This document shows, one piece after another, positions 3,001 to 41,723 of a stretch of 64,000 nucleotides of DNA. A program made the position numbers and the translations under genes. Within the stretch, counting starts at the first letter, position 1, and each line of letters starts with the position of its first letter. This stretch comes from Candidatus Poribacteria bacterium (GTDB lineage: Bacteria > Poribacteria > WGA-4E > WGA-3G), in NCBI GenBank assembly GCA_963668035.1, contig OY764073.1:565-64564 (forward strand). Direction: 5' to 3'. Below the pieces are notes generated by a model. That model ran no database searches, was not told the DNA's origin, and saw only the letters and a list, made by a program, of their open reading frames with translations.

Positions 3001-6000
3001 AACCCGGATAGTGGTGCACCTCAGGGAACTATCACTGTTAACGTTTACGCGCACGAAATAAGCTCTCCGCCCACGACAAAGGTTATCGTTAAAGTCGGCA
3101 CAGACCCAAGCGATCCAGAATCCTGGACGGAGTTCGAGTCCACCGCTGAACCGACGACTACGACCGAGATTTCGGATGCAACCCTCACCGACTTCATTGG
3201 TGACTTAGCCAATACGGCAGTGAGTGAAACCGAAGCGAGTGAAGGTGGTGAAGCGACAGTCTCGATCAATCGGACTTACCAAATGTGGTCGATTGATATA
3301 GATACCAAAACACTTGACGATACCATTACTGCTGAAAGCGCTGCAGCACGCGATGCTTCTAAAGACGATAACCAATATATGGTACGTGCCGTTGCAATCG
3401 CTGAAGCAGATGAAAGTAAAAATGCTGAATCCGCAGAGGGTATTACGGCTAAGTTCTCGGTTGACAATGTTGATGATGTCCCGCCGATAGGCCCAACGAA
3501 CATCGTCAATGTTGCTGATGTGGCTGGTGATATTACAGCAACTGAAAGCGAAGATGGTATGCTTAGTTACACTGTCGGCGGAATTGTTGATGATACAGTT
3601 CCTTCACCGGTAGCGATATTTACCGCTGAACCGGCTGCTGATGCTAAGACCTATGCCTCAGTCAACTTGGTGCAAACCACTGAAGATGGCACGGAAACTG
3701 TTACCGAAGGCGAAGCCGGTGTTCTTGACATTACGATTGATGTCGGGATGCTTGAAAATGGCACTTATATGTTCCACGCTTTAGCCGTTGATGAATTCGG
3801 TAATGTACAGACCGATGAGTCGCCTCAGATAACGGTGCATGTCCTGAACTTCCGACTCGATGATGTTACGGAAAAAGCGGTCATCGCCGTTGATGGTACG
3901 GACGTTGAAGCACCCGCAGAACCGATTTCACTTCGCGAATCTGTCACTGCAAGTTTCATGGTCGCTAACGGTTCATTGGATGCTGAAGAACTCAGTGGCG
4001 CAGTAGACGGTAGTGAAATGCCGAGTGAAAGTGCTGAAGACCCCGAAAATACCTTCTCACTGATGGTAACGGTCGGCGCACTTGCAGACGGTGTCTATAC
4101 ACCACATGCTGTGGTCACAAAACGCAACGGTTCAGTTTCATTCCCTGTAGCAGAAGTGAAGGTGGATAACACCGGTCCGATGGTTAACATTGAATCACCT
4201 ACCGATGGTGATACAGTAGATAGCCTGCCGACTGTTCACGCAACCTACAACGATGGTGACGGCAGTGGTACCGACAGTGACGGTCAGGAAGTCTTACCGT
4301 GGGCAACTACGGAACTCGCTGACGGTCCGACAGTCGATATAACACGTCTCCAACCGGAACAAGGGAACACCGATGTTGAAGTTGATCAGGACGCTATTGA
4401 AACTGATAACGGTACGTTGGTTTACACCCGCACTGAGCAACTCCCCGGGGGTGCCTATAAAATAACTGTTCAAGTCGCTGATGTCCTCGGTAACGTCGGG
4501 ACAGCCTCACGCGAATTCGTTATCAACGGTACGCTCCCGACAGTCGCGATTGATTCACCGGCTGCAGGCGCAACCTTAGATCACGGTGAACCCATGATCA
4601 GTGGTGCGTTTACGGGCGTAGGAGATGTTGAAGTAACAACCTTTACTATCAATGATGTTGAAGCAACCCCAGAGGTAGATGGAAATCAATTCTCCTATAC
4701 TCCTGAGGAAGCATTGACCAATGGTGATTACACGGTTGTTGTCGCAGTCACTGACGCTGATGGCAATATGACGCAGACATCTCTCACTTTCATGGTGGAT
4801 ATACCAGAAGAACCAAAAGACACGTCGCCGCCTGTTATCTCTACAGCGGCTCCGTCTGGGCTCATTAAAATCGGTACGCATGGTGCTGTGATCACGCTTT
4901 CTGCTGTTGTGTCTGACGAACAATCCGATATTACCGTCGTGAAGTTCCGCGTGGCGGATGTGGGTGCCTCTATAGGTGATGTACCCTTCCGTTCCGTGTC
5001 AGCTGCACACATCAAAGCGGGTGAAATAAGCAGTGCGCATCTGCTTGAGCCAGGGAGTTATACGGCAGAAGTCGTTGCAACCAGCCAAGGGGGTACAACC
5101 AAATATTCATGGACCTTCAGTCTGGACTTTGATGGTGCCAAGCCTACGATCAGTTCGATCACGCCAAGCGGAACTATCCGTGCTGGACTCCCGGTCATCT
5201 CCGCGAGTGCAAGCGACGAGTCAGGTATTGATAAAATGACTATCGCTGTTATGGATAGTGCAGGTAAAGCGGTAAAAGGTAAGGCACAAAACGATTCCGA
5301 AGAAGGTGTCGAAGGTATCACCCGTTTGGATTTCAACCTTGAAGAACCTCTTGACGAGGGAACTTACACGATTGAAGTTCGGGCGACGGATACGGTTGGT
5401 AATTCTACCACTGCAAAAGGGACCTTCTCGATTGACTTTGATACCGCTGCACCGATTATTACGATGGCATCACCGCATCAGAATGCGCGTCTCGTATTGA
5501 AACCAGGCGATAAGGCACCGACAGTTTCAATCAGTTATGCCGATGCCGAATCTGGCATAAATGCTGACTCTGTCACTCTGGTTATAGAGGGTGTTGCTTC
5601 TCAATACAAGGCTACCCCGAGTGGTACGAAGATCACGCTTACGCCCCAACAGAAGTCAGCGAGCCAAGTGATGTATCCGCTTTCAGTGGATACAAAAGCG
5701 AAGCCTGAAACTTGGGCGGGCGAGTATGTCGTTCGGTTTGAAGTGGCGGATAACGCGCACTCGGAGGGCAATGTCTCTGAGAAGAACAAAGGCGCACGTG
5801 AAGCGAATAGGACAGTCCACACCTTCAGTTTCTTCCTTGAGGCTGCGGAAGGTCCAATAATGGCAGCGCGACCGCTTAACTACCCCAACCCGTTCAAAGA
5901 CAAGACTCGCATCTCCTTCACGCTGGCACGGCAAGCAACAGTCTCGATTGTCATTTATGACATGACGTTGCGTCCGGTTCGCGTGCTTGTAGATAACACC

Positions 6001-6174
6001 TTATTTGATGCCGGTCAGTATACGCTGAAAGATAACGGTTCGGATGCGATCGGTTGGGATGGAAAATCAAGCAATGGTGAAGATTTAGCTCGAGGCATTT
6101 ACTTCTGTGAAATTATCGTAACAGACGGTTTCGAGCCAGAATACGCCGTTCTCAAACTTGCACTGACGCGCTAA
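1..6174 (+). CDS. Giant acidic surface/secreted protein with Ig-like (Big) repeats and C-terminal T9SS-type A/FlgD-like sorting domain; 5' partial
   Basis: The frame is open from base 1, so the true start lies outside the window. It has many D-x-T-x-P / DG.YT..V.A.D..GN Ig-like repeats. The C-terminus NYPNPFKDKTRISFTL...IYDMTLRPVRVL...WDGK...LARGIYF is typical of secretion C-terminal domains. Confidence 0.85.
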   Translation, partial: VRDSLNLYVRVPAPSANIGGVTFGSSDGTLQKEGRLVYDSTDLRSEFISYTFRLEEALAATNLPAWPALEDSLEQLFESVKLYYSDDGPNGDTTGVDMLPTFTENGVVWEAMIDVTPGNSYYYYYHVELAHPLTLTTLDREKLAKMATDAAAGGVLPTALDILNATRSYPITEWSMPDPRNLQLADRGILETLFDDDFRTALTDVLTPVLATESNSQIPVGERLWNAVAKNRRRLQNILLSNTEEWTREFETAFDPKLSSVFSIPKIDPAAESLWVAELTDIEDGNYFVGAVVHDADRNPLDQMWSDVTVDTKAPEADVIIDEGSDNTAVYRNGEGVYVATTLDSGPATLKVTGVPKDYVGLPIYDQNFNQGAYLLYQIVGLNPDGTPYIGEASLQRPNTWMPLTPESIMLASAVWEQTITQLLDQNLLPEEIDLGTGPVPTETLKSLDLVRTVLPLLATADALARLEKDPMIGGAIKSTEEFLGVTLLDPKVMDLLIQIFGATVDIIDHIPITYSNPDNEVMMLAQLNEDVLAGDYGIRALGIDTLFNVSSHTPPTRLRIVDSSMPEHYDKASVTFAIVGDCNLDGDTDDLFESGAIGDVTIFKNTTENVMLTVKFDQRSVHPVDVRVQYMDASGAWQDIEVVKLDEGMADIPTILWNVADFDALVAAGDSVMVRAVATNALQLTDPEPMAGAISLDAGICPLDPEVIAITVDPATTTNSDSGAPQGMLTLNAYTPSRTSTPIDSVRLVAKGPQDAEWTIETSEAVENIGGQTLADVLGDLVNTVGPDKPILNIDSNYQKWVVTIDTTALADTITADADEIQYVVMGYANTDGTEVPPIPGVEAKFSVDNIGPTKITAVADASGALEANEDGSYSVGGLVDKYDDSVESPMVTFTIDPVSYRGSYENVMIVTDAEGAAIGEATEDNGVFKITVDAGILADGTTYLGNGTYTFHAVVVDEDEAEIAETAGPSVSVNVENTYRPEPEILAIAVDPESITKTNPDSGAPQGTITVNVYAHEISSPPTTKVIVKVGTDPSDPESWTEFESTAEPTTTTEISDATLTDFIGDLANTAVSETEASEGGEATVSINRTYQMWSIDIDTKTLDDTITAESAAARDASKDDNQYMVRAVAIAEADESKNAESAEGITAKFSVDNVDDVPPIGPTNIVNVADVAGDITATESEDGMLSYTVGGIVDDTVPSPVAIFTAEPAADAKTYASVNLVQTTEDGTETVTEGEAGVLDITIDVGMLENGTYMFHALAVDEFGNVQTDESPQITVHVLNFRLDDVTEKAVIAVDGTDVEAPAEPISLRESVTASFMVANGSLDAEELSGAVDGSEMPSESAEDPENTFSLMVTVGALADGVYTPHAVVTKRNGSVSFPVAEVKVDNTGPMVNIESPTDGDTVDSLPTVHATYNDGDGSGTDSDGQEVLPWATTELADGPTVDITRLQPEQGNTDVEVDQDAIETDNGTLVYTRTEQLPGGAYKITVQVADVLGNVGTASREFVINGTLPTVAIDSPAAGATLDHGEPMISGAFTGVGDVEVTTFTINDVEATPEVDGNQFSYTPEEALTNGDYTVVVAVTDADGNMTQTSLTFMVDIPEEPKDTSPPVISTAAPSGLIKIGTHGAVITLSAVVSDEQSDITVVKFRVADVGASIGDVPFRSVSAAHIKAGEISSAHLLEPGSYTAEVVATSQGGTTKYSWTFSLDFDGAKPTISSITPSGTIRAGLPVISASASDESGIDKMTIAVMDSAGKAVKGKAQNDSEEGVEGITRLDFNLEEPLDEGTYTIEVRATDTVGNSTTAKGTFSIDFDTAAPIITMASPHQNARLVLKPGDKAPTVSISYADAESGINADSVTLVIEGVASQYKATPSGTKITLTPQQKSASQVMYPLSVDTKAKPETWAGEYVVRFEVADNAHSEGNVSEKNKGAREANRTVHTFSFFLEAAEGPIMAARPLNYPNPFKDKTRISFTLARQATVSIVIYDMTLRPVRVLVDNTLFDAGQYTLKDNGSDAIGWDGKSSNGEDLARGIYFCEIIVTDGFEPEYAVLKLALTR

Positions 6175-6248
6175 GTAAATGGCAGTCCGCATATCGGGAA
6201 TTGGACATCTATCCAATTCCCGACGCGGACAGTCTTTTGGAGGATATA

Positions 6249-7247
6249 ATGTTAATGACGAAACACAATTTTAAATGGGCTTTGAGAAAATGCCCGAAAT
6301 TGTTATGCGGTTTAATACCGGTTTTATTTCTTATCCTAACGGTGTCGCCGGTCAGTTTTGCCGGAGTGGATGCTATGCCGCATTTACGGCTTGGTGCCGG
6401 TGCACGCTCAATCGGGTTAGGCGGTGCCTTCACAGCGATCGCCGATGATGCTACCGCAACTGTCTGGAACCCAGCAGGTCTCGGCTCCGCAGCGGATTTA
6501 AGTCTCAACTTTTCGACGCAACGCCTCGATTTGGATAGAAGCCACAACTTCATCGCAGTGACGAAGGCACTCGGTTCCGCTGGGTCTATCGGGCTTGCAG
6601 TTACGAACGCCGGTGTCAGTGGTATCTCACAGTATGATAAGAATGAAAATTATGGGGGCGAATTCGACTACAGCGCGAACGCCTACTCCCTCTCTTACGG
6701 CATCGGCATCGGCAACTTCAGCTTCGGGCTAACAGGACGCATGCTATCCGATAATTTCGGCTTAGACAGTGTGGAAAACCAGAGCGGTTTCGGCGGTGTA
6801 GATATCGGATTAATGGGACATGCTCTCCACATAGATGTCGGTGAAGAGAAAGTTCCGACTTTCCATTACGGCATCGCTGCTAAGTACCTCGGCGCATCCA
6901 TCGGTGATGACACTGTCCCAATGGTGGTCAATGTCGGGTTAGCTTACAACCTCTATATGGGCAATGTCGTCACATTCGCAGCGGACCTTGAACAGGAATT
7001 CGTCAATCTTGACGAGAGTGCTACGAGTCTGCGACTCGGTGCTGAATACACGCTTGTCAATTACAAATCTACTGCCTTATCCATCCGTGGCGGTGCAAAA
7101 GCTTCACGCGACACGCGGAGCCTTTTCGGTGGGTTTGGTGTGGACATAGGTGGGCTGCGGATTGACTATGCTATCCAAGATGGCATGGCGAGTGAAATCA
7201 ACGGTGCCGGATCAACGCACTTTGCTTCCCTCTCTTACAGCTTCTAG
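6249..7247 (+). CDS. PorV/PorQ-family outer-membrane beta-barrel protein
   Basis: Signal peptide, then the family signature GAGARSIGLGGAFTAIADDATATVWNPAGL and a C-terminal HFASLSYSF. GGAGGA RBS precedes ATG 6249/6255. Confidence 0.85.
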   Translation: MLMTKHNFKWALRKCPKLLCGLIPVLFLILTVSPVSFAGVDAMPHLRLGAGARSIGLGGAFTAIADDATATVWNPAGLGSAADLSLNFSTQRLDLDRSHNFIAVTKALGSAGSIGLAVTNAGVSGISQYDKNENYGGEFDYSANAYSLSYGIGIGNFSFGLTGRMLSDNFGLDSVENQSGFGGVDIGLMGHALHIDVGEEKVPTFHYGIAAKYLGASIGDDTVPMVVNVGLAYNLYMGNVVTFAADLEQEFVNLDESATSLRLGAEYTLVNYKSTALSIRGGAKASRDTRSLFGGFGVDIGGLRIDYAIQDGMASEINGAGSTHFASLSYSF

Positions 7248-7306
7248 CAGATTTTTTTGGAGGGCGCGTGCTTCGCAAGCGCGCCCCCTTAAAGGAGAAA
7301 GAAATT

Positions 7307-8167
7307 ATGAAAATTATCAAAGGCACGCTGAAGCTAACGCTGATTCTCTACATCTGCGCAGCACTCAGTGGCGTTTATGTCTTATCCGCCTCAGCACGGA
7401 TCACCCCGCACGGCGAGGGGGATGAAAGCACGATACTCATCACCATTGAAAAAGGCGATACGCTTTGGGACCTCTGCCAAGAACATCTCAAAGACCCGCT
7501 CCGCTGGCGCGAGCTGAGCAAGTATAACGACTTCACGAACCCGCACCTCATCTACCCCGGCGAAAAGTTACGTATTCCCGTGGATATGGTGAAAAATATC
7601 GTTGAACTCGCCGAAGACGAGACGGTTGTAAAGACATCTGAGCTTGAAGAGTTGCAAAACGCGTTGGAGCTGCTTGAAGAAGCACAACTGAAGCTCGCTG
7701 AAGAACAAGCAGAGCGGAAAAAGGAAGAAGAGGCTTATGCAGCTAAACTGGCTAAGCTCCAGGCAGAACTGGAAGCAGCAGCTCAGTCCAGCAAAACTAT
7801 AGGGGATCTCGAACAAGAAGTTAAAGAGAGGATAAGCGAGGTTGAGAAGGAGATTAGCAAAACCATAGGGGATCTTCAGAACGAGTTCGAACAGAAATCT
7901 GAGGAGACAGGAAAGGAACTCTCCGCCATAGAAGCGCAGCTAAAAGCAAACGGCGAACTTCTCGTCTCAATCCAAGCGGAAATGGCGAAACTCTTGAAAG
8001 AAATTGAGATCAACCAACAGGGTATTAATGAGCTGAAGAGCCTGATAATTGCAGCCGAAGGCATTCATGAGAAACCTTCTAAGGCAAAGCGCGCACTCGT
8101 CTTTCTGACGACAGCCGCCGCTGGCATCGGCTGGTTTGCTATGAATGCTATTGGTGGGCGGAAGTAA
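7307..8167 (+). CDS. LysM domain + long coiled-coil + C-terminal hydrophobic segment protein
   Basis: IEKGDTLWDL...WRELSKYN..TNPHLIYPGEKLRIP is a LysM motif, followed by E/K/L heptads and a hydrophobic tail. AAGGAG RBS precedes ATG 7307. Confidence 0.85.
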   Translation: MKIIKGTLKLTLILYICAALSGVYVLSASARITPHGEGDESTILITIEKGDTLWDLCQEHLKDPLRWRELSKYNDFTNPHLIYPGEKLRIPVDMVKNIVELAEDETVVKTSELEELQNALELLEEAQLKLAEEQAERKKEEEAYAAKLAKLQAELEAAAQSSKTIGDLEQEVKERISEVEKEISKTIGDLQNEFEQKSEETGKELSAIEAQLKANGELLVSIQAEMAKLLKEIEINQQGINELKSLIIAAEGIHEKPSKAKRALVFLTTAAAGIGWFAMNAIGGRK

Positions 8168-19310: not shown

Positions 19311-20633
19311 TCAATGAGATTTTTTGGTGGAAGACTTTCTGGCGGCGAACTTCGCACGCAGTGCCTTGTGTGCTTGCGCTACCGGAATAGTATCTGTCCA
19401 TGTGATCTCACCTCTGATGTCGCGGCGGGTGAATTCCTTGTTGTGGTCGATAGTCCCACTGATGAGTTCCATCCGTGGGATAGAAACTTCTTCCGCGTCG
19501 CCAAAGACGAAGAGCGTAGCGTTTCCTTCGTGGGCGGGGCACTCCATGTTAAATTCGGATATCCGCGCGCGGTCTTTGCTTACTAACAGATGTCCCCTGA
19601 ATTGCTTCGGCGTGAGGTAGACACCTTCGTTGTAAGCTTGCGATCCTTTGAGGTGCTTTATTTCCAGGGTTAATGTGTTGAGTGTATGCTTTTGTGCGTT
19701 TAATACCGCCTTTAGCGTGTTAAACTCTGCATCAAGGTATGTAGCCAACGCTGTTTCGAGATCATCAACGTTTTCAGTTAGCTCCTTTTCGAGTTTATCG
19801 AGCCGCGCATCAAAAGTAGCGGTTAGTTCCTTTTTGAATTCATTGAGCCGCGCATCAAAGTTTGACACCAGTTCTTCTAACGCTGTTATTGTCGTCGTAA
19901 GTTCCGCGAGCCTCGTCTTAAGGTCTCCCGATAAACCTTCCAATGTAGTCGTTACCTCTGTCAGTGAAGCCAGGACTTCGGCAAGTTCCTTTTTCAGGTT
20001 AGCTAAGTCCTTTTCGGTCTCAGTGGCAAGGTCCGCCGGCAATAAGGCAACTTTCTTCTTCACTGAGCTAAGTTTATCCTCTACCGCTTCTTGTAGATCT
20101 CCGATTTCCTGTTTGATTTTCTGTTCTTCGAACCGCTGCTGGAGCTCCCCGATAGTCCGCCGTAGAGTTGCTTGTTCCATCTCGTCTGTCATCTTCGCGA
20201 CGGCCTCGGTTTCTTCTCTTATCTCAAGGTTGAAATCTGCGTGAAATTGGAAAATGATCTCGTAATAATCTGGTGAGACTGCTCGTAAACACGCGTAAGC
20301 ACCTTGCTGTCCCGATAGAGAGACGGTTGCCCCAGGATGAAACTGTTGAAGGAGCGGGAGCATCTGCCGCACATCAAACGCCCATGTGTCCCCGACAACG
20401 TTGTCGTGCCTGGGCGGTAAAAGCGATACAAGTGCCTCGTCAACAAGCATCCGCTGAGGGTGTGCCGGTTTGAGATCGGACAGATTCTTATATTGTGGTG
20501 GCGGCTTCCAGTGGGCTGCTATTGTCAATACTCGCTCGAGACCGCACTGTCCAACGTTGGCATGTAGTCCGAACATGGATAACGCGGCACAGCAGAAGAC
20601 TAAAACGTTAGCAAATCTAAATGAACGATTCAT
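19311..20633 (-). CDS. Secreted selenoprotein N (SELENON)-like protein interrupted by a ~190-aa coiled coil; lacks the Sec-containing C-terminal domain
   Basis: LLQQFHP...QGAYACLRAVSPDYYEIIFQFHADFNL and TPKQFRGHLLVSKD...IPRMEL...EITW match, from memory, SELENON blocks LLSMFHP...[27 protein letters not shown] and SPAQFTGHIILSKD...IPQMEL...EIKW. It has an N-terminal signal peptide. Confidence 0.75.
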   Translation of the reverse strand: MNRSFRFANVLVFCCAALSMFGLHANVGQCGLERVLTIAAHWKPPPQYKNLSDLKPAHPQRMLVDEALVSLLPPRHDNVVGDTWAFDVRQMLPLLQQFHPGATVSLSGQQGAYACLRAVSPDYYEIIFQFHADFNLEIREETEAVAKMTDEMEQATLRRTIGELQQRFEEQKIKQEIGDLQEAVEDKLSSVKKKVALLPADLATETEKDLANLKKELAEVLASLTEVTTTLEGLSGDLKTRLAELTTTITALEELVSNFDARLNEFKKELTATFDARLDKLEKELTENVDDLETALATYLDAEFNTLKAVLNAQKHTLNTLTLEIKHLKGSQAYNEGVYLTPKQFRGHLLVSKDRARISEFNMECPAHEGNATLFVFGDAEEVSIPRMELISGTIDHNKEFTRRDIRGEITWTDTIPVAQAHKALRAKFAARKSSTKKSH

Positions 20634-20726
20634 TATTTTCTCCCTATCCGCGGCGTGTTTGTGCCGCAAATTGTTAGTTTTAGGTTATTCAATCGAAATA
20701 TACCGCTGAAAACAGGCAAAAAATCA

Positions 20727-22973
20727 TCACTTTGTAGGTGGCGGTGCAAAGTCTTTTTGTATAAAGACGAACGCCTTATCTGTTGTTTTGCTGCTCCCGA
20801 ATGGACCAAAAGAAGGAGTGTAGTCAGTAATTTCACCGTCCCCGTAGAGTTCTTTTAACTGATCAAGTTCATCCTTAAAGTTTGAAGGGAGTCGCCGCTC
20901 AAGCTCAGGTAAGGTCAGAACACCATCGGGGTCGTCTCTATTTTCTAACAGCGTCAACAATGCCAAGGTAAATGGGGAATGTTCAATACCGGCCTGGACC
21001 TCCTCCTTCCCGCCGGCACTCACGTACCAGCGTGTCTTGACTTTCAGCGTCTCCGCAAGATCTAATTGTGGTTGGTTCGGCATTGCGTTTACTGCCTGGA
21101 AAACTGTTGAGGGACCTTTGTCGAGGGCGATGTTATGGTCAAACGTCCCGCCATAATCGACATCAAGTATCACCATGATGCGTTCGCACGGAAAATTGTT
21201 AAGAGCAGATTTTAATCTGCTATATGAGAGGTAGGTGGTAAGATTCGCATCCGCATCTGGAAGCTGTGACTCTGTTCCAGCGATGTGTCCCTCCTGCAAG
21301 GTTTTGTCAAAATGTCCATGTCCATTGAAATAGACGAGCAGTTGATCGCCGGGATCATATTTCTTTTCTTTGTATTCGGCGAGTGCGGCAAGTATCTGCT
21401 TTATCGTCAGGTTTGTGCGAATATCGACGTTAAACCCATATCGGTTTTGCAATTTCGCGCCGATAGCCCTTGCATCCGCTATTGGTGTGTAGGAATCGCC
21501 CCAATGCGTATACGTGTCCGTGGCGAACAGGAGTGCGTAATCCGTGCCTGTTCTGACAAATCCACTTCTATCGTAAGTACCATCGAAGGGTGATATTAGG
21601 TTAGGGTTGGCTACTTGCCATCCGTCAGCTTTGAGTGCTTCCATAAGAGGATTTTTCGTGTTTTCTACTTTCTCTGCCGGCACCCAAGTATGTTTGGACG
21701 TGGAAGCTGTTTCTATAGAAGCAAGTCTTCTGCGCATATCTTGCAACTGCGTCTGCAGATCTTCTACCAAATCTTCCTGTGTGCCTTTGCGTTTTAAAAC
21801 CTGCTTCATTCCGTTGGTGTTCGTCAAGGTGAGTGTGTTTCCGTTTAGATTCGCCTCCCAATTTTCTATGTTATCGTTTCCAAAGAGCCAATTCCGGGGA
21901 ATTATTTTCTGGACATCCTCTTCCGTGATACCGGACGACAACCAGAAGTCTTCGGGTTCAAGTCGGATCTCAAGATTCTCTTGAGCCGTGATGATGGTCC
22001 CTTCTGTCGATGTGAAGGAGCTGTTGTAGGAACCTTTTTCTGCCAGACTTACTTCTGGTAACAAAGCCATACCGCCCCCTAAATCGATCTTTATATCAAA
22101 CGCAAGTATCCGGGCCCAAGAACCGTTCGTAAAGAAAATAAGGTCATTCTGGATGTCCTTGGCCTCTATGCTATCCCAGAAGAATTCTTTACCAAGGTAT
22201 TCTATTAAAGGTTTCCCATCTAAAGGTTTCCCATTTACCGTTATCCTTTCCGCCAGGTATTCCATTAAAGGTTTCCCATCAGGTGTTGGCATTTTCAAAA
22301 AACGCTCTGTAACAGGTTTACCATCAATAGATACCATTTCCCAAGAGTCAGCTATAATTTTGCCGGACTGAACTGCCGCTTCCAGGTCTGCCTTGAGTTT
22401 AGCCAGTTCAGCTGCATAAGTCTCTCGTTCCTTTTTCCACTTTGCTTTTTCTTTAACGAGCTGCTGTTCTAATGCATTAGACTGCTCCAACGCGTTTTGT
22501 AACGCTTTAAGTGACTCATATTCGTCGAGTTGGACCACTTCAACTGCCTCTGCTTTTACAACTGACTCATCTTCGGCGAGTTCAGTGAAGTTTTTCCCTT
22601 GTCTTTGGGGAGTATTGAAGACAGACTTGACATCCCTAAAAATCTTCTGGGCGACCTCTCTCTTAGCAGCTGCTATAGTATCTTCTAACGTGCTATCCAC
22701 GGGAATACGCAACTGCTCGCCGGGGTAGATGAAGTGCGGATTTGTGAAGTCGTTATACTTGCTCAGCTCACGCCACCGGAGCGGGTCTTTGAGATGTTCT
22801 TGGCAGAGGTTCCAAAGCGTATCACCTTTTTTGATGGTGATGAGTATAGTGCTTTGATCTCCCTCGTCGTGTGGGGTGATCCGTGCCGAGGTGGATAAGA
22901 CATAAACGGCACAGAGTGCTGTGCAGATGTAGAGGATCAGCGTTATCTTCAGCGTGCTTTTGATAATTTTCAT
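20727..22973 (-). CDS. Mosaic protein: signal/anchor + LysM + coiled coil + lipocalin-like + caspase-like (C14) domain with catalytic Cys replaced by Asp
   Basis: DYALLFATD, DQLLVYFNGHG, VILDVDYGG, HSPFT. The start was reassigned to MKIIKS, which has an AAGGAG RBS. Confidence 0.85.
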   Translation of the reverse strand: MKIIKSTLKITLILYICTALCAVYVLSTSARITPHDEGDQSTILITIKKGDTLWNLCQEHLKDPLRWRELSKYNDFTNPHFIYPGEQLRIPVDSTLEDTIAAAKREVAQKIFRDVKSVFNTPQRQGKNFTELAEDESVVKAEAVEVVQLDEYESLKALQNALEQSNALEQQLVKEKAKWKKERETYAAELAKLKADLEAAVQSGKIIADSWEMVSIDGKPVTERFLKMPTPDGKPLMEYLAERITVNGKPLDGKPLIEYLGKEFFWDSIEAKDIQNDLIFFTNGSWARILAFDIKIDLGGGMALLPEVSLAEKGSYNSSFTSTEGTIITAQENLEIRLEPEDFWLSSGITEEDVQKIIPRNWLFGNDNIENWEANLNGNTLTLTNTNGMKQVLKRKGTQEDLVEDLQTQLQDMRRRLASIETASTSKHTWVPAEKVENTKNPLMEALKADGWQVANPNLISPFDGTYDRSGFVRTGTDYALLFATDTYTHWGDSYTPIADARAIGAKLQNRYGFNVDIRTNLTIKQILAALAEYKEKKYDPGDQLLVYFNGHGHFDKTLQEGHIAGTESQLPDADANLTTYLSYSRLKSALNNFPCERIMVILDVDYGGTFDHNIALDKGPSTVFQAVNAMPNQPQLDLAETLKVKTRWYVSAGGKEEVQAGIEHSPFTLALLTLLENRDDPDGVLTLPELERRLPSNFKDELDQLKELYGDGEITDYTPSFGPFGSSKTTDKAFVFIQKDFAPPPTK

Positions 22974-23065
22974 ACTTTTCTCCTTATTCTCGGCGTATTT
23001 GTGCCGGGAAGTGTTATTTTTAGGTTGTTGTATTGAAACATAGGGTTCAAAACAGTCAAAGATCC

Positions 23066-25009
23066 TCACTTTGTAGGTGGCGGTGCAAAGTCTTTTTGTA
23101 TAAAGACGAACGCCTTATCTGTTGTTTTGCTGCTCCCGAATGGACCAAAAGAAGGAGTGTAGTCAGTAATTTCACCGTCCCCGTAGAGTTCTTTTAACTG
23201 ATCAAGTTCATCCTTAAAGTTTGAAGGGAGTCGCCGTTCAAGCTCAGGTAAGGTCAGAACACCATCGGGGTCGTCTCTATTTTCTAACAGCGTCAACAGT
23301 GCCAAGGTAAATGGGGAGTGTTCAATACCGGCCAGGACCTCCTCCTTCCCGCCGGCACTCACGTACCAGCGTGTCTTGACTTTCAGCGTCTCCGCAAGAT
23401 CTAATTGTGGTTGGTTCAGCATTGCGTTTACTGCCTGGAAAACTGTTGAAGGAGCTTTGTCGAGGGCGATGTTATGGTCAAACGTCCCGCCATAATCGAC
23501 ATCAAGTATCACCATGATGCGTTCGCACGGAAAATTGTTAAGAGCAGATTTTAATCTGCTATATGAGAGGTAGGTGGTAAGATTCTCATCCGCATCTGGA
23601 AGCTGTGACTCTGTTCCAGCGATGTGTCCCTCCTGCAAGGTTTTGTCAAAATGTCCATGTCCATTGAAATAGACGAGCAGTTGATCGCCGGGATCATATT
23701 TCTTTTCTTTGTATTCGGCGAGTGCGGCAAGTATCTGCTTTATCGTCACATTTTTCCGAATATCCACTTCAAACCCGTATCGGTCTTGCAATTCCTCTCC
23801 GATAGCCTTCGCATCTCCTATCGGGGTTTCGATATACGGCCAATGCGTATATGCGTCTGTGGCGAACAGGAGTGCGTAATCCGTGCCTGTTCTGACAAAT
23901 CCACTTCTATCGTAATTACCGTCGAAGGGTGATATTTGGTTAGGGTTGGCTACTTGCCATCCGTCAGCCTTGAGTGCTTCCGTCAATTTTTCATTAGCCT
24001 GTTTCTCTGCCGGCCCCCAAGTATTTTTGAACGTGGAACGCCAAGTATTTTCGGCTGTCTCTATAGAAGCAAGCCTTCTGCGCATATCTTGCAACTTCGT
24101 GTGCAGATCTTCTGCCAAATCTGCCTGTGTGACTTTGCGTTTTAAAACCTGCTTTATTCCCTTGGTGTTCGTCAAGGTGAGTGTGTCTTCGTTTAGACTC
24201 GCCTCCCAATTTTCATCGTTTCCAAAGAGCCAATTCGGGCGAATTACTTTCAGGACATCCTCTTCCGTGATGCCGGAGGACTTCTTCCAGAAGTCTTCGG
24301 GTTCAAGTCGGATCTCAAGCTTCTCTTGAGCTGTGATGATGGTCCCGCCTGTCGGTGTGAAGGAGCCGTTGGAGGAACCTTTTTCTGCCAGACTTACTTT
24401 TGGTAGCAAACTCACACCGCCCCCTAAATCGATCTTTATATCAAACATAAGTGTCCGGAACCACGAACCGTTCGGAAAGAAAATAAGGTCATTCTGGATG
24501 TCCTTGGCCTCTATGCTATCCCAGAAGAATTCTTTACCAAGAAGTTCCGTAACAGATTGCCCTTTAAGAAACTCTAACGTTATCCTTTCCGCCAGGTATT
24601 CCATTAAAGGTTTACCGTCAGGTGTTGGCATTTTCAAAAAATGCTCTGTAACAGGTTTATCATCAATTGATACCATTTCCCAAGAGCCAGTTATAATTTT
24701 GCCGGACTGAACTTCTGCTTCCACTTCTGCCTTGAGCTTAGCCAGTTCAGCTGCATAAGTCTCTCGCTCCTTTTTCCACTTTGCTTTTTCTTCCAGGAGC
24801 TGCTGTTGTAATGCATCAAGCTCCTCCAACGTTTTTTGTAACGCTTCAAGTCCCTCTGCCTTTAAGACTACCTCGTCTTCGGTGAGTTCAACGACTACCT
24901 CGTCTTCGGCGGGTTCAACAGCCGAGGTGGATAAGACATAAACGGCACAGAGTGCTGTGCAGATGTAAAGGATCAGCGTTATCTTCAGCGTGCTTTTGAT
25001 AATTTTCAT
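23066..25009 (-). CDS. Mosaic protein: signal/anchor + coiled coil + lipocalin-like + caspase-like domain (Cys replaced by Asp)
   Basis: Tandem paralog of 20727-22973 without LysM; YFNGHG and LDVDYGG. Confidence 0.85.
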   Translation of the reverse strand: MKIIKSTLKITLILYICTALCAVYVLSTSAVEPAEDEVVVELTEDEVVLKAEGLEALQKTLEELDALQQQLLEEKAKWKKERETYAAELAKLKAEVEAEVQSGKIITGSWEMVSIDDKPVTEHFLKMPTPDGKPLMEYLAERITLEFLKGQSVTELLGKEFFWDSIEAKDIQNDLIFFPNGSWFRTLMFDIKIDLGGGVSLLPKVSLAEKGSSNGSFTPTGGTIITAQEKLEIRLEPEDFWKKSSGITEEDVLKVIRPNWLFGNDENWEASLNEDTLTLTNTKGIKQVLKRKVTQADLAEDLHTKLQDMRRRLASIETAENTWRSTFKNTWGPAEKQANEKLTEALKADGWQVANPNQISPFDGNYDRSGFVRTGTDYALLFATDAYTHWPYIETPIGDAKAIGEELQDRYGFEVDIRKNVTIKQILAALAEYKEKKYDPGDQLLVYFNGHGHFDKTLQEGHIAGTESQLPDADENLTTYLSYSRLKSALNNFPCERIMVILDVDYGGTFDHNIALDKAPSTVFQAVNAMLNQPQLDLAETLKVKTRWYVSAGGKEEVLAGIEHSPFTLALLTLLENRDDPDGVLTLPELERRLPSNFKDELDQLKELYGDGEITDYTPSFGPFGSSKTTDKAFVFIQKDFAPPPTK

Positions 25010-25101
25010 ACTTTTCTCCTTATTCTCGGCGTATTTGTGCCGGGAAGTGTTATTTTTAGATTGTTGTGTTGAAACATAGGGTTCAAAACAGTCAAAGATC
25101 C

Positions 25102-26529
25102 TCACTTTGTAGGTGGTGGTGCAAAATCTTTTTGTATAAAGACGAACGCCTGGTCTGTTATTTTCCTGCGCCTGAGGGGGCTCCCGAAGGGTCCTGAAGC
25201 GGGGGTTTGCTCAACTTCGCTTTCTTTGTCCAGGGATCTTAACCTGTCAAGTTCACTTTCAAGTTTTGATGGGAGCTGGCGTTCAATTTCGGGTATGGTT
25301 AGCACCCCGTCGGCTAAAATCTCATCACTACTGTTTAAAATCTGCAGGAGTGCCGAAGTAAAAGGGGAATGTTCTATACCGGCCTGGACCGGCTCCTTCC
25401 CGCCGGCACTCAGGTACCAGCGTGTCTTGGCTTTCAGCGTCTCCGCAAGATCTAATTGTGGCTGGTTCCGTTTTTCTTTTCCTACTCGGTGATATCTTGA
25501 GGGAGCTTTGTCCAAGGCTTTGTCCAAGGCGATGTTAGCGTCAAACGTCCCGCCATAAGAGACGTCAAGTATCACTATGATGCGTTTGCACGGAAAATTG
25601 TTAAGAGCAGATTTTAATCTGCTATATGAGAGGTAAGTGGTAAGATGCACATCTGTCTCTGGAAGCTGTGACTCTGTTCCAGCGATGTGTCCCTCCTGCA
25701 AAGTTGCATCAAAATATCCATGTCCAGTGAAATAGACGAGCAGTTGATCGCCGGGGGCATATTCCTTTTTGTTGTATTCGGCGAGTGCGACAAGTATCTG
25801 CCTTATCGTCAGATTTTCCCGAATATCGACGTTAAACCCATATCGGTTTTCCAATACCGCGCCGATAGTCTTTGCGTCCGCTATTGGGGTATTGAGATTG
25901 TTCCAATGCGTATACATGTCCGTGGCGAACAGGAGTGCGTAATCCGTGCCTGTTCTGACAAATCCACTTCTATCGTAATTGCCATCGAAGTCGTTTCTGG
26001 ACACGTTTCCGGGTATCTGCAACAGATGTTCATTCGGAACCCGGTATCTGTAGAAGTTTATCTGTTTCGTATCCGCTTTACTGATTTTGTGATAGATACC
26101 GTCATTTTCTTCGGCGGACGCAGAGAGGATCTCCCCACTACCAAAATCCTGAACGATTTTAAAATTCTTTTCAGGATGAACAAGATAATACCCGGATCCC
26201 GTTACGTTGGAGCCACTGAATGAGCCACTGAATACTGTTCCGTTCGACAGTTCACCCGCTACACCGAGGTCAACATAACTCGTCTTAGGGATATCTATTT
26301 TCATATAACGTCCAGATGGAACGTGCACCCACCCTCTCACGTGATACCCAGCTACTTCCCCGATCTTATCAACGTCTTCAGGGTCAACGGCATACCAGTA
26401 TGCAAAACGAGCTTCGGAATCGCTTCTATTTTTGATGGTCAGCGTTCGTTTCTGTTCCGCCGCTATTACCGAGTTGGCGAAGAGCGACAATAGCACCAAA
26501 AAAAGACTGAAAAAACTGCTTCGTTTCAT
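25102..26529 (-). CDS. Secreted DUF1036-like + caspase-like protein (Cys replaced by Ser)
   Basis: Signal peptide; TLTIKN...RFAYWY...GYHVRGWVHVPSG; YFTGHG and LDVSYGG. Confidence 0.82.
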   Translation of the reverse strand: MKRSSFFSLFLVLLSLFANSVIAAEQKRTLTIKNRSDSEARFAYWYAVDPEDVDKIGEVAGYHVRGWVHVPSGRYMKIDIPKTSYVDLGVAGELSNGTVFSGSFSGSNVTGSGYYLVHPEKNFKIVQDFGSGEILSASAEENDGIYHKISKADTKQINFYRYRVPNEHLLQIPGNVSRNDFDGNYDRSGFVRTGTDYALLFATDMYTHWNNLNTPIADAKTIGAVLENRYGFNVDIRENLTIRQILVALAEYNKKEYAPGDQLLVYFTGHGYFDATLQEGHIAGTESQLPETDVHLTTYLSYSRLKSALNNFPCKRIIVILDVSYGGTFDANIALDKALDKAPSRYHRVGKEKRNQPQLDLAETLKAKTRWYLSAGGKEPVQAGIEHSPFTSALLQILNSSDEILADGVLTIPEIERQLPSKLESELDRLRSLDKESEVEQTPASGPFGSPLRRRKITDQAFVFIQKDFAPPPTK

Positions 26530-26666
26530 GAGTACCTCCTTATATATGTTTACACTTGTAGCATAGGCTGTTAGCCTGTGCCGTAAGATTTCGGAGTTCG
26601 GAAGATGCGCAAGGGATTAGGGGATCCACTATAATCCGAGAGTTTTCGCCACATTTTTGAGACACG

Positions 26667-26695
26667 CGTAGAGGTTGGGTTACCCAACCCCTACG
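26667..26695. repeat. GTAG-type palindrome (REP-like)
   Basis: CGTAG-A-GGTTGGG-TTA-CCCAACC-C-CTACG hairpin in an intergenic gap. Confidence 0.6.
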
Positions 26696-26725
26696 ATTGG
26701 CTAAATTCTCAGGCACAAGGCTGTA

Positions 26726-27733
26726 TCATTTACTTTTACGAAAAACATCCCGTATCGATTTGCTAACTACAGGCATCTTATGAAATACAAACGCCTTATC
26801 TGTTGGTTCGCTGTTCCCGAAGGGTCCAGAAGCCGCGGTTAGCTTGATCTCAAGATCTGGGTTTTCCGCTAAATCCTCTACAACTCCCTTTCTAATTGGA
26901 TAGCTTGGCGTGGAGATTACCTCGACCTTGAGATATGGATTTTCCTTCCAGAACTTGTTAATCGAAAGCGCGAATTCAATTTCGGGTATTGTCAATCTAT
27001 GATCAGCTAACAGCAGTATTTGTGTCCCTCCACCAATATCTAAAGGTATATCCCTTAAAATCTGCAGGAGTGCCGAGGCAAATGGAGAATGTTCAATACC
27101 GTCCTGGACCGCCTCTGTCCGACCAGAACTCAGGTACCATCGCGTCTTTTTATCCGGATCGGCAACGCTTAGATCTAGCGGCTTCATGAGATTATCCAAT
27201 GACTGCGCAGCATCCAGTCCTCTTTCCTCATCAAATGTTCCGCCATAGCAGACATCAAGTATCAGCATGATGTTTGTACACGGAAAAGCGTCAAGGTCCG
27301 CTCTCAATTTGCTAAAGGAGAGGTAAGTGGTAAGATTCTTATCTACTTCTGGAGGCTCTGACTCTATCCCAGCGATGTATCCGTCCTGCAAAGTTTCATC
27401 AAAATGTCCATGTCCATTGAAATAGACGAGCAGTTGAGCTCCGGTGGCATATTTCTTTTGCTTGTATTCGGCGAGTGCGGCAAGTATCTGCTTTATCGTC
27501 AGGTTTGTGCGAGTATCGACGTCAAACCCGTATTGGTTTTGCAATTCCTCTCCGATAGCCTTTGCGTCCGCTATTGGTGTGTCAAGATTCTGCCAATACA
27601 CATACGCGTCTGTGGCGAATAGCAGGGCGTAATCCGATCTACTTGCTTTAAGAGGTAATGCAGCTCCAAATGCTGTGCTTGCGGAGAGTGTGACGAATAC
27701 CAAAAAAAGACTAAAAAAACGGAAGCGTTTCAT
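26726..27733 (-). CDS. Secreted caspase family (peptidase C14/orthocaspase-like) protein with intact His-Cys dyad
   Basis: Signal peptide ending AFG-A; YFNGHG and LILDVCYGG. Confidence 0.88.
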   Translation of the reverse strand: MKRFRFFSLFLVFVTLSASTAFGAALPLKASRSDYALLFATDAYVYWQNLDTPIADAKAIGEELQNQYGFDVDTRTNLTIKQILAALAEYKQKKYATGAQLLVYFNGHGHFDETLQDGYIAGIESEPPEVDKNLTTYLSFSKLRADLDAFPCTNIMLILDVCYGGTFDEERGLDAAQSLDNLMKPLDLSVADPDKKTRWYLSSGRTEAVQDGIEHSPFASALLQILRDIPLDIGGGTQILLLADHRLTIPEIEFALSINKFWKENPYLKVEVISTPSYPIRKGVVEDLAENPDLEIKLTAASGPFGNSEPTDKAFVFHKMPVVSKSIRDVFRKSK

Positions 27734-27806
27734 GTGTTTTCTCCTTTTCTCTGTAATAAAAAGTGTTAGGTAGTCTGTAGAAAAAACGGCTGGGTAGTCG
27801 CTAACA

Positions 27807-28271
27807 TCACGGTTTAGTCAAAATGGCAAGGCTCTTATGTGTGATCGGGGTTTCCCGAATCTTGGTGGCTTCTGAATCAGCCAAGTAGTAATATCCGTCG
27901 CGCGTAATAGTTTTGATCGGTGAAAACGGCTGTTCTTGTGCTAAAACGATCAACTGTTCTGAACCGAAGGGTGGGGTGGCCACAAACCTCCCAATCACTA
28001 CATCACTGCCAACCTGTGTCTGCTGAATATGGGTGCTGTCGTGAAGGAGCGTGTATTTTAGACCGTCTTGATCACCGGTGGCAAGCACATAGATTAATCG
28101 GATGTAGGCGGGTTGATTCACGCGACAAGAAACAATCATGCGTTCGCCCTCGGCGTAAACCTTTTTGTCTGTCCAAGCGTCAAGTTTCAGTGCCTGTTTA
28201 CTGCATCCGGTCATAGAAAAGCAGCCAATAATGGAAAGGGTGAATAACGTGATGCCTCTCAATTTTTTCAT
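27807..28271 (-). CDS. Lipoprotein with stand-alone DUF4384-like domain
   Basis: Lipobox MTGC; AWTDKKVYAEGE...VNQPAYIRLIY...PPFGSEQLIVLA; a close copy of the C-terminus of 28420-30057. Confidence 0.78.
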   Translation of the reverse strand: MKKLRGITLFTLSIIGCFSMTGCSKQALKLDAWTDKKVYAEGERMIVSCRVNQPAYIRLIYVLATGDQDGLKYTLLHDSTHIQQTQVGSDVVIGRFVATPPFGSEQLIVLAQEQPFSPIKTITRDGYYYLADSEATKIRETPITHKSLAILTKP

Positions 28272-28419
28272 CGGTGGTGTTTCCTTCTATGGATGCAAGA
28301 ACCTTTTCAAGTCTGGGACGAGTCAGTCCATGCTTAGAAAAAAAGCGGGACATAGGAGCCCCGCTTCTGTATGTGGGTACAACAACTGGTAGTCTGTCAA
28401 GTCTAACGCGTGACAACTA

Positions 28420-39358: not shown

Positions 39359-40474
39359 CTACTCTAATTTCGCCTTTAATTCAGCGAGGTCTTTGTCAAT
39401 GGATGCGTCTTCCGCGTATCCAGCAAATTCACGTTGTAATTTCACATCCTTAAACGCTACGTCCACCTCAGAAGCCGCTTGTGCTAACGCATCAGCTTCG
39501 GTGGCGTTTTGCTCTACTTGCCTCAGGATCTCAAAAGCCTTGCTATCTTGGAGTTCGGTCAACGCTTGGTGCAGATGTTCCTCGGCATCTACATTTGTAT
39601 GCTGTACAATCACTTGATCCCTTTTTCTTTCTGTTTCCTCAGTCTTCTGTTGAAGCGTTTCAAAGAGTGTTGTCAGGTGTGCAACGACCCGTTTCTGCTC
39701 ATCCCATTGGTTTTTGTAGGTGCTGGCGAGTTGTCGGTACTCGTTGCGTTCTGCTAAATCTTCGCGCGCGAGATCTTCACGTCCAGCTTGGAGAGCGATA
39801 ATCGCCCGCTCTTCACAACGTTCCGCCTGCGCAAGTGCTCCCTGATGAGCGTTTTGAAACTGTTTTTCAATGCCGATAGAGGCATCAACCTTCTGCTTCG
39901 CTTCCGAAAACCGATTTGTAATTTCACTAATAACATCCCCTAAAACCTGTTCTAAATCCCTCGTTTTGATACCGACCTTATCTTCGGATTCTGATTCAGA
40001 GACAAATTCCACAGCTTTTGTGTCTAACTGAACCACAATTGTCTTGGCAAGTTTATCCCCCATCCGCCGTCTCTCTTTTCCGCATGCAAATAACCAGTCA
40101 ACCGGTTGGAATATACCGGCAAAACGCCGAACGAAAGCATCTTTAAAGTTCGCAGGTTTCCCATCAGCCAAACGCACGATCTGCAGAGATAACAACCGCT
40201 TTCCAAACCCGCCGCCCCGCTTGAAGCCATCCATAAGAAATAGACCAAATCCCCACAAAATAACAGTGAGGGTCCTAATACTCATTGAGCTTATATCTGA
40301 TGCTTCCCCAAAGCCAATAGTAGCCTCAAGAATTTCACGGAGTTCAAAATTGAGGAAAATTAAAAGGGTTTGAATAAGCCCCAAGAGTCCTACATCCAGT
40401 AAGAACGCGCCGAGTCGGGCCCATCGCGAAGCCAACTTAAACTTTTTTTCTGCAACCTTAATAATGGATGCCAT
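39359..40474 (-). CDS. RDD domain-PspA/IM30 fusion (paralog 4)
   Basis: LASRWARLGAFLLD...GKRLLSLQIV...GDKLAKTIVV, then ERA.IALQAGREDLARE...IDKDLAELKAKL. Confidence 0.85.
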   Translation of the reverse strand: MASIIKVAEKKFKLASRWARLGAFLLDVGLLGLIQTLLIFLNFELREILEATIGFGEASDISSMSIRTLTVILWGFGLFLMDGFKRGGGFGKRLLSLQIVRLADGKPANFKDAFVRRFAGIFQPVDWLFACGKERRRMGDKLAKTIVVQLDTKAVEFVSESESEDKVGIKTRDLEQVLGDVISEITNRFSEAKQKVDASIGIEKQFQNAHQGALAQAERCEERAIIALQAGREDLAREDLAERNEYRQLASTYKNQWDEQKRVVAHLTTLFETLQQKTEETERKRDQVIVQHTNVDAEEHLHQALTELQDSKAFEILRQVEQNATEADALAQAASEVDVAFKDVKLQREFAGYAEDASIDKDLAELKAKLE

Positions 40475-40521
40475 CTGAAATGTCTCCCCTTGAATAAATC
40501 GCCATTCAAAATACCCAATGG

Positions 40522-41700: not shown

Positions 41701-41723
41701 ACTCCAGAAATCTTTATGAACGT

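Follow-up and report, generated by a model that had tools for sequence, protein, structure and literature searches.

Two apparently layered chimeric genes with caspase-fold domains in a hypervariable island of a Candidatus Poribacteria genome

In the pilin and vls cassettes, short tracts are moved between gene copies and patchwork genes result, and the treponemal tpr genes, a paralogous surface-protein family, reportedly undergo segmental gene conversion. Chimeric genes are said to originate by illegitimate recombination in a eukaryotic study, and under 'Rosetta stone' logic gene fusions indicate functional linkage. Multi-domain bacterial proteins with an origin that can be traced step by step are, to our knowledge, rare. 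Two such candidates, genes A and B, are described here from a 64,000-nucleotide (nt) stretch of a Candidatus Poribacteria bacterium (assembly GCA_963668035.1, contig OY764073.1, positions 565 to 64,564 of the forward strand), called the window below, in which all coordinates are given. In bacteria, chimeric genes from paralog recombination are described in one report as products of single crossovers through large deletions that are easily missed (PMC13626634). The caspase-fold domains of A and B resemble those of pseudo-orthocaspases, which a second report defines as bacterial C14 p20-domain proteins without the His-Cys dyad, counts as 8.6% of bacterial orthocaspases and presumes to be inactive and derived from active relatives (PMC6426788). 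The substituted dyads named there as common are Tyr-Ser, Tyr-Ala, Phe-Ser, Gln-Cys and His-Ala, and the word 'aspartate' occurs 0 times in its text (PMC6426788). Among the listed titles and abstracts on Poribacteria and caspases, nothing on bacterial caspase homologs was found.

A and B are very probably genuine, selectively maintained chimeric genes that were built in layers within a hypervariable island. The genome carrying the window (G000) is a single 5.24-Mb contig with 96% completeness, and 11 public runs, labelled sponge metagenome, hold the stretch. Four relatives were compared with it, namely G127, G003, G023 and, from another genus, G044.

Parts of genes A and B and their donors

The genes concerned are as follows, with lengths in amino acids (aa) and dS and dN denoting synonymous and nonsynonymous divergence.

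Gene A, 20727-22973, minus strand: 748 aa, mosaic
Gene B, 23066-25009, minus strand: 647 aa, mosaic
Gene L, 7268-8167, plus strand: signal peptide, LysM, long coiled coil and C-terminal hydrophobic segment; donor of the 5' block, conserved core gene
Gene F, 28420-30057, minus strand: DUF4384 at the C-terminus; donor of the 96-nt insert (29801-29903)
Gene G, 30236-30865, minus strand: stand-alone lipocalin-like small lipoprotein without Pfam match; paralog of the A/B barrel, not a recent donor
Gene H, 30876-32423, minus strand: beta-rich N-domain and Peptidase_C14, His and Cys kept; ancestral cluster member, origin of a ~150-nt patch in A/B
Gene C, 25102-26529, minus strand: beta-rich N-domain and caspase, like H, with Cys to Ser; main relative of the A/B caspase backbone
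Gene D, 26726-27733, minus strand: signal peptide and C14 caspase, His and Cys kept; origin of short patches in A and B
Gene E, 27807-28271, minus strand: DUF4384 only (Pfam); old truncated paralog of the DUF4384 end of F, dS 1.19 to F
452-aa gene, 19311-20639, minus strand: coiled-coil protein

The minus-strand genes are transcribed in the order H, G, F, E, D, C, B, A and the 452-aa gene, and no open reading frame (ORF) of the island is left unassigned. When 20601-25200 was compared with the whole window by self-BLASTN, A resolved into the following parts.

22694-22985, minus strand: ribosome-binding site (RBS), signal peptide and LysM of L, inverted recent copy; matches 7586-7292 at 90.2% over 295 nt (E 1e-112)
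22598-22693, minus strand: in-frame F insert of ~96 nt; BLASTN 22591-22693 to 29801-29903, 85.4% over 103 nt (E 6e-28)
22350-22597, minus strand: L-derived coiled coil; 22352-22511 to 7802-7643 (81%) and 22555-22596 to 7632-7591 (83%)
21786-22343, minus strand: lipocalin-like barrel; 21796-22153 to 30249-30600 (G), 70.4% over 358 nt
21588-21785, minus strand: linker with the short F-like motifs K.TWVPAE and L.EALKADGW.V, without a DNA-level donor
20727-21587, minus strand: caspase-fold domain; 20629-21588 to 25005-25990, 80.4% over 991 nt

The order of parts in A is thus L-type signal peptide, LysM, F-derived helix, L-type coiled coil, lipocalin-like barrel, F-like linker and caspase-fold domain. 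B is the chimera of A without the LysM and the F insert, the L-type signal peptide and coiled coil being present, and the two genes are 90.1% identical over 1902 nt. The LysM domain (PF01476) at A residues 45-91 scored 33.1 bits against a cut-off of 20.9 (L, 32.7 bits; none in B), and it would bind peptidoglycan. Peptidase_C14 (PF00656, cut-off 21.4) scored 49.1 bits in A, 49.3 in B, 65.1 in C, 63.2 in D and 55.5 in H. DUF4384 (PF14326) was found in F (40 bits) and E (31.1 bits) and is absent from A and B, in which the F pieces all come from the N-terminal, non-DUF4384 part of F.

An earlier reading of the window from its letters, hereafter the sequence-only reading, had described A as beginning with an inverted match of ~90% to the LysM gene, switching to the DUF4384 gene and returning to the LysM gene, and B as the same chimera without LysM and first insert, with all junctions in frame. 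The first block, the insert and the coiled coil (81-83% to 7591-7802) agree with this, as do the net gap of 270 nt in B and the frames, and the self-BLASTN that it had suggested as a check reproduced every described match, the short linker motifs at the protein level only. Three of its points stood in part. The continuation of A with the lipocalin gene was recovered as the match to G, but G did not hold as a direct recent donor. The short DUF4384-gene-like pieces WVP.E and L..DGW.V were similar in protein-level shuffle tests, with nothing at the DNA level, and the end in the caspase module of 25102 was recovered, although in that end C-, D- and H-like tracts are pieced together. As to its view that the shuffling was recent, this applies to the L block, the F insert (dS ~0.2) and the caspase patches, but not to the barrel-linker-caspase fusion, which is already present in G127.

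By these comparisons the L block is young, local and confined to the G000 lineage. A and B share states found only in the L of G000 (MKIIK, a one-residue insertion, RIPVD and the coiled-coil sequence); the aligned L orthologs (n = 10) have MKMIR or MKIIR where G000 has MKIIK, and the fused genes of G127 have another signal peptide and another coil. The L of G127, 67% identical to that of G000, is the closest among the four genomes compared. Between L and A, the signal peptide and LysM gave dS 0.24 and dN 0.058 (LysM by itself, dN/dS ~0.12), and the coiled coil dS 0.19 and dN 0.25. The similar dS fits one capture of a contiguous ~640-nt block, and the lower DNA identity of the coil is due to amino-acid changes. 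L lies ~15 kb from A and B, the copy is inverted, and the longest exact match between A and L is 34 nt. The 5' junction of the block lies inside the RBS, where AGGAGAAA is common to the leaders of the 452-aa gene and of L; the 3' junction lies between ..KII (...SGKII) and SWEMV, with at most 2-3 shared bases. The spacer upstream of A (22974-23065, minus strand) aligns with the same spacer upstream of B at 25010-25101, and both are copies of the native 5' leader (20640-20726) of the 452-aa gene. Just upstream of the RBS is a 10-pair hairpin (22987-23010 and 25023-25046, equivalent to ~20650-20675 in the leader of the 452-aa gene), possibly a regulatory structure of the leader that was carried over with the spacer. 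A promoter and terminator scan gave sites below the shuffle level (14 versus 18.1; 11 versus 15.1).

The F insert of A (TLEDT..SVFN, a predicted helix, dS 0.18 to F) breaks the L-derived block exactly where L runs on uninterrupted. At its ends (slashes) A reads GAT / AGC ACG ... CAA GGG / AAA AAC, so that 33 codons replace two L codons (ATG GTG); TGGA occurs near the 5' junction, and at the 3' junction 7 of 9 bases are common to F and L. The insert shows states of the F lineage of G000, unlike the fused genes of G127, and sits where that older architecture has an F-like helix; it is read as an F helix that was probably re-inserted after loss. The AlphaFold2 (AF2) model of F was poor (predicted local distance difference test, pLDDT, 54.2), and its helix at residues 54-77 is a low-confidence prediction. 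For the linker (A residues 397-462) no tblastn match was found elsewhere in the genome. Its local score against the F protein was 56, versus 30.5 +/- 5.0 in shuffles and reached by 1 of 1000, and the scores against three F orthologs were reached by 1, 39 and 0 of 1000 shuffles; a homologous linker is present in the fused genes of G127.

Over 1926 aligned bases, A and B are separated by 148 mismatches and by seven indel events or clusters of net 270, 33, 6, 3, 6, 15 and 6 nt, all multiples of 3. The largest is the gap in B relative to A, comprising the LysM and the F insert. A has a specific 33-nt in-frame insertion in the coiled coil and, in its barrel insertion, a repeated DGKPL.EYL unit (22195-22220 / 22255-22280). 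B has a 27-nt tandem duplication after the signal peptide (VEPAEDEVV / VELTEDEVV) and a 15-nt duplication in the linker giving ENTW..KNTW (counterpart of 21730-21760). About 4.6% of random substitutions in A and B would create a stop, so that ~7 were expected under drift and 0 were seen, a rough argument since tracts imported from intact donors are pre-screened. The pattern indicates that selection keeps both frames open.

An older fusion in relatives and support for the junctions

Among 112 genomes of the family, 29 had a match at E <= 1e-20, and barrel and caspase occurred in one frame only in G127; in a pattern scan with one genome per GTDB species, 1 of 29 loci was fused, again that of G127. 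Its two fused genes stand in tandem at the same site, adjoining the ortholog of the 452-aa gene, and encode 664 aa (M664) and 656 aa (M656) in the order signal peptide, F-like helix, coiled coil, barrel, linker and caspase. An insertion of ~35-45 aa in the barrel is present in 4/4 fused genes and 0/5 stand-alone G genes. The linker motif KNTWVPAE is common to A/B and the G127 fused genes, the barrel start is near-identical in DNA between them (G differs), and a 21-nt context around an Asp codon in the caspase domain is identical in A/B of G000 and in M656 and the caspase gene c331 of G127. The dS between the barrels of A and G is ~1.2, and in a barrel tree of 10 of 11 rows, from which the G of G003 was left out, the G of G000 pairs with that of G127 (96/94) and not with A/B. 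Because of this dS, the tree grouping and the insertion restricted to fused genes, G at 30236 is taken as a paralog and not as a recent donor of the barrel. The shared insertions and linker motifs point to a single origin of the fusion, and together with the Asp context, the dS and the tree they place the joining of barrel, F bits and caspase before the split of the G000 and G127 species. The G127 array (L025, 4805-9968) also contains c331, a gene of 331 aa with the same signal peptide directly on the caspase domain.

A lipocalin/calycin-like beta-barrel is a plausible fold for G, though with template modelling (TM) scores of just ~0.5-0.6. Its AF2 model (pLDDT 83.2, predicted TM score 0.75) is a beta-barrel with 8 strands of 5-16 residues plus helices. 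The best Foldseek matches were fibrillin 5 (E 2e-4, TM 0.52-0.58), ToxS (TM 0.56-0.62) and VtrC, the last two being periplasmic partner-binding barrels, and a Bacteroides 'lipocalin-like protein' was also matched (E 0.02).

The junctions of A were recovered in contigs of public runs. Contigs of 562 nt from runs X1 and X2, belonging to two studies, cover 22245-22806 with 0 and 3 differences, a segment that includes both ends of the F insert and the junction of coiled coil to barrel; one of the two runs may be the sample from which G000 was assembled. A 366-nt contig of X2 covers 21600-21965, including the junction of barrel to linker. Runs X3 and X5 have little or no cover of the A-specific part (~21500-22900), B and the flanks being covered; this is not readable as absence of A because no contig joins across it and because A and B share ~680 near-identical bases. 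One contig each in X2 and X3 (one study) joins 23886 to 31691; it leaves out 7804 bases, so that the N-part of H runs into a B-like caspase start, and may reflect either a strain in which H carries a B-like caspase start or an assembly-graph artefact.

In relatives the pieces stand apart. L-type genes occur in frames of 286-294 aa in 24/24 congeners and LysM matches in frames of 293-354 aa in 16/16 genomes from other families of the order, and in 0 of these 40 genomes is a LysM joined to a caspase. F, G and H-type caspase are separate genes in G023, G003, G044 and G127. The locus of G023 reads 514-aa ortholog of the 452-aa gene, F, G, caspase, caspase, and has no counterpart of any gene from E to A; that of G044 reads caspase, G, F, F', and that of G003 caspase, G, F. 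From these gene orders H-G-F is taken as the ancestral cluster and E through A as additions. The sequence-only reading had named two findings that would speak against it, junctions unsupported by reads and an ancestral long gene from which the apparent donors arose by fission; the contigs of two studies across 22245-22806 answer the former and the stand-alone genes of the relatives the latter. At the level of sequence comparison, A and B are confirmed as derived chimeras and the donors as ancestral. Next to L in the window lie genes for a 2053-aa repetitive surface-type protein (13-6174) and a 348-aa protein without Pfam match (6201-7247), both kept beside L in G023.

When A residues 1-470 were searched against 5.8 billion proteins, 7 matches were obtained. 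Besides A and B they comprise P0002, which differs from B by 7 changes, P0003, the G127-type P0005 and two LysM proteins that are unrelated. The A-type protein is thus one of seven and found only in G000, whereas two other assemblies hold intact B-type orthologs. Up to residue 380, P0003 is 95-100% B-like, and from residue 541 it is 95-100% C-like, so that a B N-part is joined to a C-type caspase end. A barrel profile gave only 35 clusters (50% identity) among 1.84 billion representative proteins. In one member, P0013 (496 aa), a signal peptide is followed by a barrel that has the insertion of the fused type, then by an F-like helix, a coiled coil and DUF4384 (27.6 bits versus 27), and there is no caspase. 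Besides the G127 fused genes, P0003 and P0013 are further joinings of these modules. In a further protein, P0012 (318 aa), an H-type N-domain fragment runs straight into a G-type gene, signal peptide of G included. A metagenome contig collection scanned with B and with alignment A2 gave no relative.

The island (19311-32423) is, on these comparisons, hypervariable and set between conserved core genes. Its proteins, including the 452-aa coiled-coil protein, are 47-71% identical to those of G127, whereas the core genes to either side, which occupy the same chromosomal site there, reach 79-94%; the flanks show 71-94% protein identity to G023. Housekeeping genes flank the island with synteny kept in two congeners, and the ten flanking proteins scanned were metabolic or structural, with no recombinase or reverse transcriptase among them. 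The sole repeats nearby are two short palindromic elements resembling repetitive extragenic palindromes (REP), at 26556-26581 and 26668-26696 in the C-D intergenic region, which have ~30 and ~15 copies genome-wide, in keeping with the earlier remark that no mobile element is adjacent. A depth spike with many loose ends in the C-D intergenic region in all four runs is attributed to these palindromes. Another local triplication in the window, at 39359-42881, consists of three tandem paralogs (371, 392 and 385 aa) with a membrane-spanning N-part and a long coiled-coil C-part ending ..DKDLAELKAKLE.

Caspase domains and catalytic residues

The caspase domain of A has a C-like backbone with a D-like patch at ~21354-21443 and an H-like patch at ~20829-20981, and its last ~680 nt are 97-100% identical to B. 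Identity and dS along the domain were as follows.

A versus B, A codons 521 to end: 97-100%, dS 0.033
A versus B, A codons 481-520: 70-80%
A versus C, A codons 461-660: 83-98%, dS 0.125
A versus C, A codons 661-720: 60-73%, dS 1.2
A versus H, A codons 671-710: 90-97% (~77% elsewhere)
A versus H, A codons 665-715: dS 0.26, versus 0.80 over codons 463-660
A versus D, A codons 511-540: 93%

Informative sites cluster into blocks: first ABC, next blocks that group A with C, D or H to the exclusion of B, and after these AB, ABC, ABH and ABC. The pairwise homoplasy index (PHI) over the five caspase paralogs was 0.329, versus 0.456 +/- 0.0105 in permuted data, with 0/2000 permutations as low. The longest exact matches are 171 nt (A-B), 62 (A-C), 51 (A-D) and 35 (A-H), and such matches of 35-171 nt are sufficient for homologous exchange. 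The caspase paralogs of G127 also exchange patches; near-identical tracts there link M656 with c331 and M664 with c542.

The catalytic His motif GHG is kept in A, B, C, D and H, and the family profile aligns its column, weakly (E 0.002-0.005), with SHG of solved caspases. The Cys column was placed by D-x-C-x-x-G, which we take to be the family motif, as the PDB profile alignment reached the His only; neither D alone nor the caspase domain of G044, searched against PDB sequences, gave anything usable for it. In this column A and B read LDVDYGG (codon GAT), C reads LDVSYGG and D and H read LDVCYGG; GAT differs from TGC at all three codon positions. The corresponding dyads in G127 are Arg/Asp (M656), Asn/Cys (M664), His/Asp (c331) and His/Ser (c542), and c538 of G023 has His/Asp. 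A and B are filed as pseudo-orthocaspase-like because the Cys assigned by the motif is Asp; from their sequences they look like pseudo-orthocaspases and not like active proteases.

Proposed history, rival explanations and comparison with known systems

The layers are probably ordered as follows. Before the split from G127, an H-type caspase, a G-type barrel and N-terminal bits of F would have been fused into one secreted protein. Only in the G000 lineage, its 5' end would then have been replaced by an inverted ectopic copy of ~640 nt of L, from the RBS to the middle of the coiled coil, with RBS microhomology at one joint and almost no homology at the other. Into this L-derived part an in-frame copy of ~96 nt of F would have been inserted, joined at short microhomologies, which brought an F helix back to its older position. 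Tandem duplication by unequal exchange would have given two genes, of which B lost the LysM through the net 270-nt in-frame deletion; the F insert may have been acquired before or after this duplication. The five caspase paralogs have gone on exchanging tracts, the latest event homogenising the last ~680 nt of A and B. It is proposed that the L and F junctions arose by illegitimate joining at microhomologies or by template switching, mechanisms that are known in general, and the caspase patches by RecA-type gene conversion among paralogs; the papers found on templated insertions are mainly eukaryotic. The mechanism thus appears to be ordinary recombination and gene conversion with no dedicated element.

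As to function, it is tentatively suggested that A and B are exported, non-proteolytic caspase-fold scaffolds, A being newly tethered to peptidoglycan by its LysM, which would work with the catalytically intact H and D and with G and F. The fusion of H, G and F modules in one polypeptide suggests that the three ancestral proteins act together; a complex prediction with mature H and G gave no answer (score 0.00) and is evidence neither way. A more speculative and rather doubtful proposal is that the island is a standing module-shuffling hotspot, with selection for recombinational novelty in a secreted H-G-F system facing the sponge host or phages. It would draw on about seven modules (2-3 signal-peptide types, LysM, F helix, coiled coil, barrel, F-like linker, caspase fold and DUF4384), and at least five module orders occur across Poribacteria lineages, namely A-type, B-type, the M-type of G127, the signal peptide directly on the caspase and P0013. 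If it were true, the fusions would be a natural Rosetta stone in which caspase, barrel and DUF4384 proteins work as one machine.

Several observations weigh against layered, selectively maintained chimeras. The ratio dN/dS is ~1 over much of A and B, including the linker (barrel 0.106/0.116; caspase tract of A and C 0.127/0.125; coiled coil >1), and with the loss of the catalytic Cys this suits relaxed constraint as well as diversification. The column of that Cys was itself placed by the family motif, the PDB profile alignment covering the His only. None of the 11 runs holding the stretch is an RNA run. The dS of each tract comes from 20-150 synonymous sites and gives no order of the young events, the lipocalin tree leaves the sisterhood of the G000 and G127 fused lineages undecided, and P0003 and P0013 come from metagenome assemblies and are known as proteins without their contigs. 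For the F helix, a possible three-event alternative is that the old helix was retained, with two separate conversions by L and one by F.

The same dN/dS ~1 in barrel, linker and much of the caspase domain, the change of the nucleophile Cys to Asp in both genes, the lack of an RNA run and the restriction of the A-type protein to G000 (1/7 matches) would also be expected if A and B were functionless by-products of recombination in a repeat-rich island, drifting to pseudogenes. This is nevertheless unlikely, since 148 differences have left the ORFs of 748 and 647 codons unbroken, 7/7 indel events are net multiples of 3, the LysM is under purifying selection (dN/dS ~0.12), B-type orthologs are intact in two other assemblies, and a second species keeps the Asp variant in identical codon context, with a third having the variant too.

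Programmed diversification, whether by cassette-type gene conversion, as known from antigenic variation, or by a diversity-generating retroelement with L, F, G, C, D and H as donor cassettes, could account for conversion tracts from several donors, the alternative patchworks in related genomes and the joint of the H N-part to a B-like caspase start seen in one contig each of X2 and X3. It is nonetheless very improbable: each donor is a complete and conserved gene that has its own start codon, RBS and signal peptide and is not a silent cassette, young pieces at dS ~0.2 imply that on a generational scale such events seldom happen, mismatches have A as the donor base in only 6/27 (L to LysM), 9/30 (L to coil), 3/15 (F to A) and 20/67 (C to A) cases with transitions dominating, and no recombinase or reverse transcriptase was among the 10 flanking proteins scanned, a genome-wide reverse transcriptase search not having been made. 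Tandem paralogs of 90-100% identity are error-prone for assemblers, so a chimeric assembly was also considered, together with an ancestral long gene from which L, F and G arose by fission. Both are hardly credible given that the contigs of two studies span the LysM/F/coil/barrel junctions, that the fused architecture recurs in G127 and in P0002, P0003 and P0005, and that L stands alone in 24/24 congeners and F, G and H-type caspase are separate in four other genomes.

Read as layered chimeras, A and B are of interest because the donors still stand beside the product, the junctions can be read at single-codon resolution, and old and young layers are separable by sister genomes. A 32-codon sub-domain piece appears to have been copied in frame between non-homologous genes without a mobile element, and the RBS, signal peptide and LysM of a housekeeping gene to have been borrowed to re-target a protein. 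A small family is also flagged, in which barrels are tied to secreted caspase-fold and DUF4384 proteins in sponge symbionts, with long-lived His-Asp pseudo-caspases. The two genes thereby offer a clear natural example of bacteria making new proteins by shuffling gene pieces in old and recent rounds.

Like the pseudo-orthocaspases, A and B have Peptidase_C14, a substituted dyad and extra domains, but their His-Asp (His-Ser in C) lies outside the dyads named common there (PMC6426788). Unlike them, A and B have a signal peptide, an N-terminal LysM (in A), coiled-coil and barrel modules, and adjoin intact paralogs with which DNA is exchanged. As in the bacterial chimeras cited above, pieces of existing genes were merged by recombination into a new frame; unlike the cases in that report (PMC13626634), non-homologous genes are joined, with an inverted ectopic copy, a 96-nt insertion and several time layers. 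The five caspase paralogs are patchworked by short tracts, as judged from PHI and block-wise identity, in the manner of tpr, pilin and vls genes, but the donors of A and B are functional genes, with no silent cassettes and no sign of high frequency, and the organism that carries them is a symbiont of sponges and no pathogen under adaptive immunity. Processes of this kind are already known and no new machinery is implied; what the locus adds is a genuine case in which the layered shuffling of domains and sub-domains can be read unusually well. In common with Rosetta stone fusions, modules of the adjacent, co-conserved H, G and F stand in one polypeptide, which suggests that these proteins may work together.

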